Of a stretch of 46,874 nt of DNA, positions 15,280-46,222 are shown in pieces. This stretch comes from a bacterium (lineage in GTDB: Bacteria; Patescibacteriota; Patescibacteriia; SG8-24). The stretch is from the NCBI GenBank assembly GCA_023246195.1, contig JAHFIW010000005.1, positions 1 through 46,874 of the forward strand, read 5' to 3'. Below the pieces are notes generated by a model that saw only the letters and a program-made list of their open reading frames with translations, was not told the origin of the DNA and did not search any database. A program made the position numbers and the translations under genes. The first letter of the stretch is position 1. Each line of letters starts with the position of its first letter.

Positions 15280-15342
15280 GGCAGTCTCCTTTTTCTGAAA
15301 GAACTTGGCGCTGAGCATGTGCCTAAAAGAGCACCTCGTCAA
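15280..15342 (-). promoter_or_regulatory. Promoter + boxA-like motif + SD
   Basis: TTGACG-17-CATGCT-cagcgccaa-GTTCTTTCAGAA-AAAGGAG-actgcc-ATG. Confidence 0.65.
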
Positions 15343-15404
15343 GACGGAACGTCATTATTCGCGGGTGCGGTTTCGTGAGGAACCGCAGGATTTGTCGGTC
15401 AGGG

Positions 15405-15433
15405 TTGACAAAATGACGCTTTTGTGGTATTAA
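15405..15433 (+). promoter_or_regulatory. sigma70 promoter with ACAAAA-N6-TTTTGT palindrome
   Basis: TTGACA-17-TATTAA with TG extension. Confidence 0.7.
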
Positions 15434-15468
15434 TATCGGTTCTACTCTTGCCATGAACACCCAAAACT

Positions 15469-17205
15469 ATGCACAAATTTAGCTCAACCATCGCAAAAAT
15501 TACGGCCGTGGCGACGCTGCTTTCGCTGTTCGTTACGGTTTCCCCGGCCTTGGCGGCTGAGACCAGCCCGGTTTCGTTGACGTACGATCCGTGGGAAGTT
15601 GCGGTTCTCTCCCGGGATTCGGTTGACTCGCAGATCGAGGCTTACAAGGTCGACAAAAACCTTGTGGCCTGGACCGAGCTTTCCGGCAACACCCGCAAGC
15701 TGTACGTCTTTGACGGCGTGCAGACCCGTCTTTTGGCCGCCTTCGACAAGGCCGACTGGAAGGATGATGGTAATGGCTTCTACGACGCGGTGAAGGGCAA
15801 CTTTGACGTGGCTGACGGCTTGGTCGTTTGGACCATGTCGGACGGTCATGATCGTGAAATCTATTCCTTCGACGGCGATTCCGTGAAGAAGGTTTCCGAC
15901 AACAGCTACGACGACCGTCACCCGATTACTTCGGCCGGTCGCATCGCTTGGACCAGCCAGCCCAGCGCCAACGCCTACAACCTGATGGTCAAGGACCAAA
16001 AGGGCGTCCGCCGCGTGGACACTTGGCCTGCGACCAACTATGCCTTCTCGGATTCCAACCTGTTCTGGCTCAACACCCGCCCCAATGAGAACTGGATGCA
16101 CGTGCTCGTCAACACGGGCGCGTTTACCGGCGTCGTCGGTCAGGGCGATGACCGTCCTCTCACCGAGTACTTCACCGTGGACGGCAAGGGCAATGCCGCT
16201 TGGGAGTATTCCACCAAGAACTGGAGCTACGACAAGCGCATCACCTACGTTTCAATGAACGGCCTGCCTGCAATCGAAATGCTCCAGCGCGACGTGCCTC
16301 CCAAAGTCACGCGTTTGGAAGACATGGACAACGGCAAGGTCCTCATGAACGTCACTGACTTGCTGCTGACCGACCTGGCGCACAAGAGCACGCTTCTTGA
16401 GCTGACCAACTATTATAATCAGAAGGCAATTTACAGCAAGGAGTCGGCCAGCAAGGCACGCTACATGGATGGCGGTTACGTCACCATGCGCGAGCCCAAT
16501 GCCATCACTCCGATCGTGTTCCATTCCACGGAACGCAGCTTCGAGGACGTCATTAGTTTTGAACCGGTCATCCTTGACCGCTTCGATGCCGATGGTTCTG
16601 CCGCTGCCGGCGCGCGCTACGGCGGAGGTCTCGTGACCTACACCGCCGGCCAGTCCGTGGTGATTCCCTCGACCGTCGAAACCAGCGACCTTACCGTGAA
16701 GAACGGCAACATCGCCTGGATCGAAGGTGTCGCTGGTAACCAGACGCTCAAGTTTGCCGCTACCAAGGTCGTCGTGAAGACGGCAGTCGGTCCGGCGCGC
16801 TACACGGGTCATCTCGTGAAGTCGCCGACCAGCCCCGCCGTGTACTTCGCGGCCCAGGACGGCAAGCGCTACGTGTTCACGGGCCAAGGTCAGTTCTACA
16901 GTTACTTCAACGATTTCGCTTCGGTGCAAGTCGTCTCGGCGGCCAAGCTCGCGTCCATTCCGGTCGGCGGCGACGTGCTCTACCAGCCTGAAACAAAACT
17001 TCTCAAGATCGCGCTGTCCCCGAAGGTCTATTCGATCAGCAAGGACGGTTCGGCTCATTGGATTCAGAGCGAGGAGGCCGCACAGAGCGTCTACGGCGTG
17101 AACTGGAAGCAGAAGATCGTCACCGTCGACGAGACCGAACTGGCGGATTATCCGACAGGCGGTCCGATCATGAGCAGCCTGGCTTACTACTCCGGCCTGA
17201 ACTAG
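15469..17205 (+). CDS. Secreted beta-rich surface protein with C-terminal repeated putative anchoring domain
   Basis: Signal peptide ending PALA-A; propeller-like DG..VAW repeats; C-terminal LVK..SPAVYF...KRYVF domain shared with ORF 1..4108. Confidence 0.75.
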   Translation: MHKFSSTIAKITAVATLLSLFVTVSPALAAETSPVSLTYDPWEVAVLSRDSVDSQIEAYKVDKNLVAWTELSGNTRKLYVFDGVQTRLLAAFDKADWKDDGNGFYDAVKGNFDVADGLVVWTMSDGHDREIYSFDGDSVKKVSDNSYDDRHPITSAGRIAWTSQPSANAYNLMVKDQKGVRRVDTWPATNYAFSDSNLFWLNTRPNENWMHVLVNTGAFTGVVGQGDDRPLTEYFTVDGKGNAAWEYSTKNWSYDKRITYVSMNGLPAIEMLQRDVPPKVTRLEDMDNGKVLMNVTDLLLTDLAHKSTLLELTNYYNQKAIYSKESASKARYMDGGYVTMREPNAITPIVFHSTERSFEDVISFEPVILDRFDADGSAAAGARYGGGLVTYTAGQSVVIPSTVETSDLTVKNGNIAWIEGVAGNQTLKFAATKVVVKTAVGPARYTGHLVKSPTSPAVYFAAQDGKRYVFTGQGQFYSYFNDFASVQVVSAAKLASIPVGGDVLYQPETKLLKIALSPKVYSISKDGSAHWIQSEEAAQSVYGVNWKQKIVTVDETELADYPTGGPIMSSLAYYSGLN

Positions 17206-17218
17206 ATTCGGACAGACG

Positions 17219-17250
17219 AAAAACCGCCCCCAGTGATGGGGACGGTTTTT
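17219..17250. terminator. Bidirectional terminator
   Basis: AAAAACCGCCCC-cagtgat-GGGGACGGTTTTT between convergent genes. Confidence 0.8.
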
Positions 17251-17257
17251 GATTGCG

Positions 17258-17707
17258 CTACTTCTTCTTTGAGACCTTCTTCTTGGTGTCGACGGTCTCG
17301 GTACCCTTGGCCGACCTTTCGACGAGCTTCTTCTTGTGGGTGCGGAGGTAGTACAGCTTGGCGCGGCTGACGGCGTACTGCTTGACTGACTCGATCTTGG
17401 CGACTACCGGGGACATCACGGGGAAGATGCGCTCCACGCCGACGCCGCTCGCGATCTTGCGGACGGTGATGGTGCGGCTGGTAGCGTCCTTGCCCTTCAC
17501 GGCGATGACGGTTCCTTCGAAAATCTGGATGCGCTCGCGCTCCTCGCCCTTCGAGGTGGTTTCCTTGATCTTCTGGTGGACGCGAACGACCATGCCAGGC
17601 TCGATCTCCGTGGCCTTCACAGGTTCAACCTTCACGTCCGCAGCGGCCGTTTCGGTGGAAGACTGGCTTTCCGCTTCGTTGACTTCATTTTTCGCTTCTT
17701 CGGCCAT
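17258..17707 (-). CDS. rplS: 50S ribosomal protein L19
   Basis: [46 protein letters not shown]. Confidence 0.96.
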
Positions 17708-44132: not shown

Positions 44133-44159
44133 CTGGCACTCTGGTGATTTGAGTGCTAA
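44133..44159 (+). promoter_or_regulatory. CIRCE element (HrcA operator)
   Basis: CTGGCACTC-N9-GAGTGCTAA versus consensus TTAGCACTC-N9-GAGTGCTAA, upstream of groES. Confidence 0.92.
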
Positions 44160-44199
44160 GCTCTTTGGCGATAACGCTTATAACCTGATTTTCACGCCT

Positions 44200-44490
44200 A
44201 TGCAGGTCAAACCTCTTAACGATCGCGTGCTGGTGAAGCCGCTCTCCAAGGAGCAGTCCACCGCCACCGGCATCATCATCCCCGACACCGTCGAGAAGGA
44301 GAAGCCCGAGAAGGGCGAAGTCATGGTCACCGGCCCGGGCAAACTGCTCGAGAACGGCACGCGCGCCCCCATGACCGTGAAGGCGGGAGACAAAGTCATG
44401 TTCAAGAAGTACTCACCGGACGAGATTAAGGTTGACGGCAAAGATTTGCTCATCGTCGACGAGTCCGACATTCTCGCGATTATCGAATAA
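44200..44490 (+). CDS. groES: Co-chaperonin GroES
   Basis: [37 protein letters not shown]. Confidence 0.97.
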
Positions 44491-44495
44491 CCGCT

Positions 44496-46130
44496 ATGGC
44501 CAAACAAATCCTCTTTACCGAACAGGCTCGCGAAAAGATCAAGAAGGGCGTCGACAAGCTGGCGAACGCCGTGAAGGTCACTCTCGGTCCCAAGGGCCGC
44601 AATGTGGTCATCGACCGCGGCTACGGCTCGCCGATGGTCACCAAGGATGGCGTCTCCGTCGCCAAGGAAATCGAGCTCGAAGACAAGTTCGAGAATGTCG
44701 GCGCGGAACTGGTGAAGGAAGTCGCTTCTAAGACCAACGATGTCGCCGGCGACGGCACCACCACTGCCACCGTTTTGGCGCAGGCCATCTACGCCGAAGG
44801 TTCCAAAATGGTCGCCTCCGGCGCAAACCCGATGACCCTCAAGAAGGGCATCGAACGTGCCGTCGAAGCCGTCGTGGCAGAGCTGACCGGCAAGATTTCC
44901 AAGGCCATTTCCGGCAACGAAATCGAGAACGTCGCCGCCATCTCGGCTAATGACGCCGAAATCGGCAAGATCATCGCTTCGGCCATGAAGTCCGTCGGCG
45001 AGAACGGCGTCATCACCGTAGAGGAGTCGCAGTCCTTCGGCATCGAGAGCGAGGTCGTCGAAGGCATGCGCTTCGACAAGGGCTACATCGCCCCCTACAT
45101 GATCACCGACGCCGAGCGCATGGAGGCCGCCTACGCCGAGGCCAGCATCCTGCTCGTCGAAAAGAAGATTTCTTCCATTCAAGAAATCCTGCCGCTGCTC
45201 GAGAAGGTGGCGGCAACCGGACGCAAGGAAATCGTCGTCATCGCCGAAGACGTCGATGGGGAGGCGCTCACCACGCTCGTCGTCAACAAGATTCGCGGCA
45301 CCTTCAGCGCGTTGGCGGTGAAGGCGCCGGGTTTCGGCGACCGCCGCAAGGAAATGCTCAAGGACATTGCCATTCTTACCGGCGGTAAGGTCATCAGCGA
45401 GGAACTTGGCCTCAAGTTGGAAGATGCCAAACTCGAAGATCTCGGCAGGGCCCGCAAGGTCGTCTCCACCAAGGAGAACACCACCATCGTCGGCGGCGCC
45501 GGCGACAAGCAGGCCATCGCCGACCGCGTCATCGCCATCAAGAAGGAGCTCGCCGCCGCTGACTCCGACTTCGACAAGGAGAAGTTGCAGGAACGCCTGG
45601 CCAAGTTGTCCGGCGGCATCGGCGTCATCAAGGTCGGCGCAGCTACCGAAACCGAAATGAAGGAGAAAAAGCAGCGCATCGAGGATGCCATCTCTGCCAC
45701 CAAGGCCGCAGTCGAGGAAGGCATCGTTCCCGGCGGCGGCGTGGCGTTCATCCGCGCGGCCAAGTCGCTGGATGCCATCAAGGCCGACACCATGCCTCAT
45801 GATGAGTACTCCGGCGTGCAGCTGGTGAAGCGCGCGCTGGAAGAACCCCTGCGCCAGATCGCGGCCAACGCGGGTCAGGACGGCTCCGTGGTCGTCGCCG
45901 AGGTCAAGAAGACCGATGGGGCCATGGGCTACAATGCCGCAACCGACGTCTACGAGGACATGGTCAAGGCCGGCATCATCGACCCGACCAAAGTCACGCG
46001 TTTCGCACTCCAGAATGCGGCTTCCATCGCCTCGTTGCTCCTTACCACCGAATGCGTGGTGACGGACATTCCGAAGAAGGAAGAAGCTCCGGCAGGAGGG
46101 CATGGCGGCATGGGCGGAATGGATTTCTAA
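44496..46130 (+). CDS. groEL: Chaperonin GroEL
   Basis: [38 protein letters not shown] tail. Confidence 0.99.
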
Positions 46131-46142
46131 TGAAGGAAGGAT

Positions 46143-46166
46143 GGGCCCGCTCACGCGGGCCTTTTT
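46143..46166 (+). terminator. groEL terminator
   Basis: GGGCCCGC-tcac-GCGGGCCT-TTTT. Confidence 0.85.
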
Positions 46167-46168
46167 CC

Positions 46169-46222
46169 TTGACAAAAAGGTCGTTTTGGCGTGTACTAGC
46201 AGCTGTCTTTGGCAAGGAGAAA
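46169..46222 (+). promoter_or_regulatory. Promoter + boxA-like motif + SD
   Basis: TTGACA-17-TGTACT-agcagct-GTCTTTGGCAAGGAG-aaa-ATG. Confidence 0.6.

Follow-up and report, generated by a model that had tools for sequence, protein, structure and literature searches.

We analyzed a window of 46,874 nucleotides (nt), GenBank contig JAHFIW010000005.1, which is one whole contig (C45) of a 1,168,061-base Patescibacteria genome (47 contigs, 98% complete, 59% G+C), and in which several genes share a short sequence, G(T/C)TC(N)TT, between their promoter and their Shine-Dalgarno (SD) sequence. The window has bacterial genes, which encode NusA, RNase J, UvrA, L19, YidC, GroEL, and three tRNA synthetases, and the closest named relatives of NusA come from metagenome-assembled genomes labelled Candidatus Uhrbacteria or Patescibacteria. 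The stretch is present in three DNA runs, all from one groundwater study, and no RNA run was listed for it. The initial annotation had described a compact module of promoter, boxA-like motif, and SD in front of unrelated genes, and all seven main instances that it listed are present, each with a TTGnnn and -10-like pair separated by 16 or 17 nt upstream, and an SD downstream. Six of them fit the 7-mer, whereas the instance before position 46223 (GTCTTTG) does not. Seven genes in the window have the same layout of TTGnnn/-10 pair, G(T/C)TC(N)TT, SD, and ATG, and they start at 15279(-), 21320(-), 23902(-), 25600(-), 29909(+), 37562(+), and 38353(+).

The gene at 25600 encodes a HAD-family hydrolase of 243 amino acids (24869..25600, minus strand; Pfam HAD/Hydrolase) and forms a single-gene unit, with a putative promoter (TTGCAA at 25655-25660 and TAGGCT at 25632-25637, minus strand), a GCTCTTT motif forming the predicted first bases of the mRNA (25615..25621, minus strand), the SD AAAGGA, and a terminator-like hairpin at 24861-24884. 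The adenosine deaminase gene (20346..21320, minus strand; 324 amino acids, Pfam A_deaminase 2.6e-33) is preceded by a putative -35 box TTGACC at 21374-21379 and GCTCTTT at 21336..21342 (minus strand), followed by CAAAAGGA, which contains the SD, and its hairpin lies at 20323-20340. On the same strand, an Amidohydrolase_2 gene (14497..15279; 260 amino acids from the ATG at 15279, Pfam Amidohydro_2 5.3e-30 on the longer frame) has a putative -35 box TTGACG at 15337-15342, GTTCTTT at 15298..15304, an SD within CAGAAAAAGGAG, and a hairpin at 14455-14472. A 578-amino acid gene at 15469 points away from the amidohydrolase gene, and a 190-nt region is common to both (window 15343-15468); downstream of the 15469 promoter, TTGACA-17-TATTAA, there is a partial motif, GTTCTAC, and no SD.

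Three further units lie on the plus strand. A 202-amino acid protein without Pfam match (29909..30517; hairpin at 30524-30547) has the promoter TTGACA at 29846-29851 and TACCCT at 29868-29873, and the motif GCTCCTTT at 29887..29894, which reads GCTCCTT(T), followed by the SD GAAAGGA. The gene caller picked an internal ATG at 29993 for this gene, and the SD-led ATG at 29909 was assigned by manual reading. Another protein without Pfam match (37562..38248; hairpin at 38257-38283) is preceded by TTGACA-17-TATGAT at 37496-37524 and GTTCATT at 37537..37543, followed by TTGAAAGG. The third, a 190-amino acid protein also without Pfam match (38353..38925), has TTGACC at 38294-38299, TAGGGT at 38317-38322, and GTTCTTT at 38330..38336, followed by TGTCCAAGGAGG with the SD. 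A weaker instance, GTTCCTT (23933..23939, minus strand), is located 7 nt past TACGGT and 37 nt before the ATG at 23902 of a GCS2 (ybdK-like) gene with the SD GAGG. Most of these genes had been credited with a terminator of their own, which holds for six units, with terminator-like hairpins after 14497, 20346, 24869, 30517, 38248, and 20271, but none was scored after 38925 and 46420.

The conserved unit is a 7-mer close to the predicted transcript start

The motif was originally read as one composite, G(C/T)TC(n)TTT(G/C)AAA. In 76 leaders there was no base preference at positions +8 to +12, and the long motif is in fact two parts, a 7-nt G(T>C)TC(T>A>C)TT and an A-rich extended SD (AAGGAG). The (G/C)AAA part is the 5' flank of this extended SD, which pairs with the 16S 3' end ...CACCUCCUUUCU. 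A strict version of the composite, GCTC{1,2}TTT[GC]A{3,4}GGA, has three matches in 1.17 Mb, all within the window, and the three leaders concerned read GAAAG or CAAAA after the 7-mer, which is again SD flank. Among the 76 leader sites, GTTCTTT occurs 30 times and GCTCTTT 12 times, and position 5 is the only one at which the others deviate (A in 22, C in 9, and G in 3).

Gene starts were taken from a purpose-written gene caller (1079 genes), and statements that depend on them carry that caveat, whereas the promoter-anchored statistics are independent of it. GYTCNTT is more frequent than background both in the window (80 matches versus 54 ± 8.7, with 1 of 100 shuffles reaching 80) and in the genome, where 133 sense-upstream matches were counted for 728 genes, with 61.1 ± 7.6 expected and 200 resamples giving at most 82. 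Of these 133 matches, 76 are located 15-45 nt before the start codon. When the region 5-10 nt past stringent promoter-like sites (n = 318) was searched, GTTC was the most enriched of all 256 4-mers (37 versus 6.2 expected). The G of this post-promoter GTTC lies 5-8 nt past the -10 box in 33 of 39 cases, and a T follows at +6 in 23/39 and at +7 in 22/39. After the pattern TTGAC..TANNNT..N5-10, GTTC was counted 31 times and GTTC[ACT]TT 13 times, compared to 1-15 and 0-3 times for sixteen other 4-mers. Expectation-maximisation on the 30 nt past 317 promoter-like sites returned GTTCnTT (G.76, C.84, TT.74/.75) at an occupancy of approximately 0.3, and the same motif emerged in a relative of another genus, even unseeded.

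The gap between the -10 box and the motif is 5-10 nt (mode 5-8), which is shorter than the 7-13 nt claimed before. In candidate leaderless genes, the start codon lies 6-11 nt past the -10 box, and for that reason the G of the motif probably lies at or next to the transcript start, as we infer from this spacing. A -10 box located 6 nt upstream of the start codon (TATACT-gtgccc-ATG and TAAAAT-accagc-ATG) makes several genes look leaderless, for example, those at window positions 8711 (DsbA-like) and 21459 (YkuD). Leaders with the motif are short (18-45 nt) and SD-led, and the SD follows 0-25 nt downstream of the motif. A perfect complement of GTTCTTT was found in neither the 16S nor the partial 23S rRNA. 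Promoter spacers share a pattern of their own throughout the genome, TTGACAAAA...TTTT(n)TGC-TAnnnT, and both TTGACAA (86 in intergenic versus 22 in coding DNA) and TGCTATA (57 versus 11) are concentrated outside genes.

The motif is linked to SD-led leaders

When genes with a canonical promoter 22-60 nt upstream were grouped by their ribosome binding site, the motif was present in 22 of 78 SD-led leaders, 1 of 23 leaders with a weak SD, and none of 65 leaders without SD. After removal of 7 possible leaderless cases, the non-SD leaders gave 1/81 (strict motif). The upstream regions of promoter-tagged tRNA genes were devoid of it (0/25), as were the 16S P2 and 23S promoters, and in operon-internal genes its frequency (5/270) equalled the coding background. 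A general start element or initial transcribed region (ITR) element of RNA polymerase is therefore unlikely, as it should accompany promoters whatever RNA they make, and the signal is likely to act at the RNA rather than at the promoter level. Leaders with the motif also carry AA before GG(AG) more often than other SD leaders (34/61 versus 67/213). SD use is low in this genome, with an SD in 36 of 270 operon-internal genes and in 267 of 691 genes that have their own upstream region.

Genes that carry the motif

The initial annotation had restricted the motif to accessory or orphan genes inserted as cassettes, which is contradicted by the approximately 75 carriers in the genome and by the lineage-wide occurrence of the motif. 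A Pfam domain is present in 37 of the 75 carriers and absent in 38, and those with a domain include EF-Tu (tuf), NusB, NusG, FtsH, a class A PBP, an M50 protease, thymidine kinase, adenosine deaminase, and many peptidases. As a measure of conservation, we scored whether a homologue was present in 778 kb of another genus. This was the case for 19/74 motif carriers, compared to 273/617 other genes with their own upstream region (p = 0.0026), and to 66/207 other SD-led genes (p = 0.38). Thus, carriers are less conserved than the average gene, but not less than other SD-led genes. The accessory character noted initially is right within the window, but genome-wide it holds only weakly, and it then belongs to SD-led genes in general and not to the motif.

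A mobile promoter/leader cassette was rejected, because the leaders have only the 7-mer and the SD in common and differ in their spacers and promoter spacers. The further suggestion that the genes are built for expression by a host machinery finds no support either, since the promoters are of the ordinary TTGACA/TGCTAnnnT type of this genome and core genes carry the motif. We also considered a local nucleoside-salvage regulon, as the neighbouring adenosine deaminase, HAD hydrolase, and amidohydrolase genes carry the strict composite, and discarded it because the motif is found genome-wide. A palindromic operator was dismissed as well, the palindrome being a mere overlap of the motif with the SD.

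Conservation and range

The HAD-family hydrolase has homologues in 21 of 41 relatives, and its leader motif is kept in 14 of 20 homologous upstream regions (9 strict and 5 generalised), while the remaining leader varies. In genome G014, orthologues of carriers keep the motif in 3/9 cases, compared to 6/320 for genes without the motif (p = 0.0011). These comparisons point to motif presence being inherited along with the gene, and to purifying selection.

A promoter followed by GTTCHTT was detected in 23/23 genomes of the family, with 3-37 matches each and 0 for a reversed-pattern control, and in 12/13 genomes of the sister family. In a sample of the phylum, 83/151 genomes had matches, mostly 1-2, and several other families reached 8-12. 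Five non-Patescibacteria genomes gave 0-3 matches, equal to controls. GTTC was again the top 4-mer in a genome of another family with 45% G+C (400 kb; 16 versus 3.2 expected), and in a genome with 33% G+C the top 4-mer was GCTC (20 versus 6.8), present as GCTCTTT before SDs.

Similarity to boxA and occurrence at Nus-factor genes

The 7-mer equals positions 1-7 of GYTCTTTAANA, the consensus used to search for boxA (Baniulyte 2017, PMC5725501). The resemblance noted initially thus stands for the 5' half, and not for the 3' half, which is missing. At E. coli suhB, Nus recruitment has been reported to be lost when C4T and T6C are introduced together (Baniulyte et al. 2017, PMC5725501). The best-kept positions of the motif include C4 and T6. 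The genome's own 16S leader has the core as GAACTTTGACAAT after a hairpin, and fourteen 16S leaders of the lineage contain GnnCTTTGACAAT, with a G-N-N-C-(T/A)-T-T core, likewise after a hairpin. One genus has GAACATTGACAAT in this leader, which indicates that an A at position 5 is tolerated. The rrn boxA of other Patescibacteria families reads GTTCTTTAATAA and GTTCCTTAAAAG, and that of B. subtilis has been given as AUGAUCUUUGAAA.

The distal 16S promoter is followed in several genera by a conserved GAGC(A/G)TTCGA located 7-8 nt past the -10 box, which fits the loosest form of the core, G-N-N-C-N-T-T, and may be an unrelated leader element. The 16S (G000:C9:4649-6154) and 23S (G000:C33:71896-74801) rRNA genes are unlinked. 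A terminator-like hairpin and then a tRNA-Ile gene with its own promoter are located downstream of the 16S gene. The 23S gene has its own promoter and leader, and the match to it is interrupted at model positions 2044/2083 and extends past the contig end.

NusB (4.8e-38), S10, NusG, and NusA are all present, and Ribosomal_S10 was found in 28 of 31 genomes, this genome included. Autoregulation through a boxA before Nus-factor genes has been reported for suhB, rpsJ, and nusB in gamma-proteobacteria. In our lineage, G(A/G)TCTTT, GCCCTTT, or GAACATT is located between the tuf stop codon and the rpsJ ATG in 23/23 loci examined (of 28 returned), that is, in an intercistronic spacer away from any promoter. 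The core was also present upstream of nusB in 23/26 loci examined (of 30 returned), in leaders without SD. In the sister family, the element adjoins the start codon of both genes, as GATCTTTATG and GTCCTTTtATG. For comparison, the generalised motif occurs within 60 nt upstream of 40/320 unrelated homologues in G014.

Autoregulation of nusG was rejected because its motif is not conserved. An inositol-monophosphatase (SuhB-family) gene (G000:C14:5351-6238, minus strand, locus L316) has the promoter TTGACG-17-TAACGT and the leader GGTCTTTCAAAGAAAGGAA-ATG, which is identical in a relative of the same genus. As a third autoregulated Nus gene, it was set aside on account of its rarity, despite the motif in its leader.

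Other features of the window

A 1360-amino acid NHL-repeat/arylesterase-like protein is encoded at 26-4108 (plus strand) and a 573-amino acid protein with a T4SS-pilin domain at 9477-11198 (plus strand), both of which we take to be typical large surface proteins of episymbiotic Patescibacteria. A tRNA-Ile gene with the anticodon TAT (UAU) is located at 19385-19460 (plus strand). In most bacteria, AUA is decoded by a lysidine-modified CAU tRNA instead.

Discussion

The explanation that we favour, although we hold it with somewhat less than even confidence, is that the 7-mer is a boxA-like half-site for NusB-S10 that limits ribosome access to the nearby SD. The shared element would be an RNA signal, G(U/C)UC(U/A/C)UU, at or next to the 5' end of the transcript, corresponding to the 5' half (core) of boxA. 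NusB-S10 (NusE) would bind these first bases of the nascent leader and, with the SD just 0-25 nt further downstream, would limit access of the 30S subunit, in the way described for the Nus complex at suhB of E. coli. Since no Rho was found in 41 genomes, the suhB mechanism can hold here only in its translational half and not in its Rho part, so that the proposed mechanism would have no Rho step in this lineage. If NusB-S10 limits 30S access in this way, approximately 10% of the genes, together with nusB and rpsJ, would be tied to the free NusB/S10 pool, i.e., to ribosome synthesis. In this scheme we infer the transcript start, the binding of NusB-S10, and the sign of the regulation from sequence.

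Several observations speak against a NusB-S10 site. The 3' half of the rrn boxA (TTGACAAT, kept in the 14 leaders examined; GACAA in the lineage and AANA in E. coli) is absent from the mRNA motif, and a G at +8 is found in just 14/76 mRNA sites, without any preference from +8 to +12. Positions 2-3 are mostly TT or CT in mRNAs, versus AA, GA, TG, or CG in rrn leaders. The number of sites, approximately 75 per 1.17-Mb genome, is far above the 0-7 sites per genome reported in a gamma-proteobacterial survey (Baniulyte 2017, PMC5725501). Among the Nus-related genes, nusG has retained the motif in no more than about 8 of 23 relatives, the SuhB-family gene occurs in just 3/41 genomes, and inspection of the sequence upstream of nusA in the window (39075..40445, plus strand; Pfam NusA_N and KH_5) revealed no 7-mer. 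A search for Rho by its RNA-binding domain, Rho_RNA_bind, found it in 0/41 genomes, with the control positive in 9/14 reference genomes. Finally, the near-exclusive link to SD-led leaders is merely allowed by a boxA model.

That link would be required if the motif were a weak mimic of the anti-SD sequence, a possibility that we consider unlikely. If wobbles are allowed, positions 2-7 (YUCHUU) form the reverse complement of the SD AAGGAG, and they are similar to the 16S 3' end CCUCCUUU. The 5' end of the mRNA could thus pair transiently with the SD, in a fourU-like manner, and tune ribosome access or be shielded from RNase J, which is encoded in the window. Besides the 22/78 versus 1/81 distribution, the AA enrichment before GG(AG), and the sequence of the 16S 3' end, this is favoured by minimum-free-energy folds, which pair the motif with the SD in 39/65 leaders. 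However, permuting the motif did not make the leaders fold any worse (mean z +0.10 for the native leaders, n = 76), the z values of six window leaders range from -0.33 to +1.85, and for two of these, 198-200 of 200 shuffles equal or surpass the native fold. The duplex between 5' end and SD has -4.05 kcal/mol, with random 8-mers at -3.02 and the true anti-SD at -8.0, and the probability that the SD is unpaired is 0.41 versus 0.50 (p = 0.19). Thus, in the z and accessibility tests, no SD-masking helix more stable than the controls was found. In addition, U is preferred over C at G-pairing positions, position 5 is A in 22/76 sites, and the motif is kept where it adjoins the SD as well as in the SD-less nusB, rpsJ, and tuf leaders.

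A site for another single-strand RNA-binding protein, acting as translational enhancer or RNA chaperone site before the SD, seems rather improbable. The genome encodes a single cold-shock domain (CSD) protein, at C15:22498-22689, and a four-domain S1 protein as candidates, and the leaders in the window are unstructured. The core TCTTT equals that of the high-affinity heptamer reported for B. subtilis CspB, GTCTTTG/T (PMC1904285), and the instance before 46223 is exactly GTCTTTG. On the other hand, G1 and C4 at a fixed N-N spacing are one base off the Csp heptamer, and nothing ties CSD or S1 proteins specifically to the nusB and rpsJ leaders. We also know of no case in which S1 reads so specific a heptamer. 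Least probable of all, and in our view very unlikely, is an element acting in the DNA, a lineage-specific extended start element (Y-1 R+1 Y+2) with a T-rich ITR that RNA polymerase would read and that would fix the start site or set promoter escape. The anchoring of the motif 5-10 nt past the -10 box agrees with this, as does a C at -1, followed by G and T, in 37/76 sites, and YRY start elements and 5' T-tracts in ITRs have been described (Kuo 2025, PMC12641261). Yet equally canonical promoters lack the motif (tRNA, 0/25; SD-less, 1/81; 16S P2 and 23S) while SD-led ones have it in 22/78 cases, the gap to the -10 box varies over 6 nt, and the same core precedes rpsJ away from any promoter.

Returning to the boxA half-site, we tentatively propose, with less confidence than for the site itself, that Rho-less Patescibacteria, most strongly the Ca. 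Uhrbacteria family, have recruited NusB-S10 as a global translational governor. If so, about one in four SD-led mRNAs, from roughly 75 genes, would have the half-site as their first seven bases, and the governed set would span proteases, envelope and nucleoside-salvage enzymes, nusB, and rpsJ, so that a tenth of the proteome would follow the status of ribosome assembly. Nus factors are regarded as dedicated to rRNA, with a handful of extra targets per genome. A Nus regulon of this kind would be an order of magnitude above any described, would work without Rho, and would belong to bacteria that are uncultured and genome-reduced, and about whose gene regulation hardly anything is known. Irrespective of the mechanism, the motif marks probable transcript starts, can improve start-codon calls, and distinguishes three kinds of translation start, namely leaderless, leadered without SD, and SD-led with motif. 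The literature searched, which did not extend to the supplement of PMC12641261 (one Patescibacteria species), contained no description of the motif and nothing relevant on Patescibacteria promoters or leaders.

Among known systems, the boxA in the 5' untranslated region of E. coli suhB (PMC5725501) is comparable in that a boxA-type sequence is located in a short leader just before the SD, Nus-factor genes themselves carry the site, and C4 and T6 are critical. It differs in that here only the 5' 7 nt are kept, the element begins at the predicted +1, approximately 75 genes per genome are concerned instead of 0-7, and termination cannot follow, as Rho was not found. The boxA of rrn leaders shares the G-N-N-C-U-U-U core and the presence of NusB, S10, NusG, and NusA, but the rrn copy has an invariant 3' half (UUGACAAU) and is located tens of nt from the start of the leader, downstream of a boxB-like hairpin, and it precedes a non-translated RNA. 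SD-masking, fourU-type RNA thermometers also have a short leader in which an upstream pyrimidine run pairs with AGGA/GGAG using U-G wobbles, whereas our leaders are not predicted to form a stable hairpin, and the motif has a more specific sequence than pairing would need and is also present in SD-less leaders. The promoter start element with a T-rich ITR (Kuo et al. 2025, PMC12641261) resembles the motif in its pyrimidine-purine-pyrimidine start and T-rich first bases, but the element described here comprises 7 nt with an invariant C at +4 and is absent from the tRNA and SD-less promoters of the same genome.

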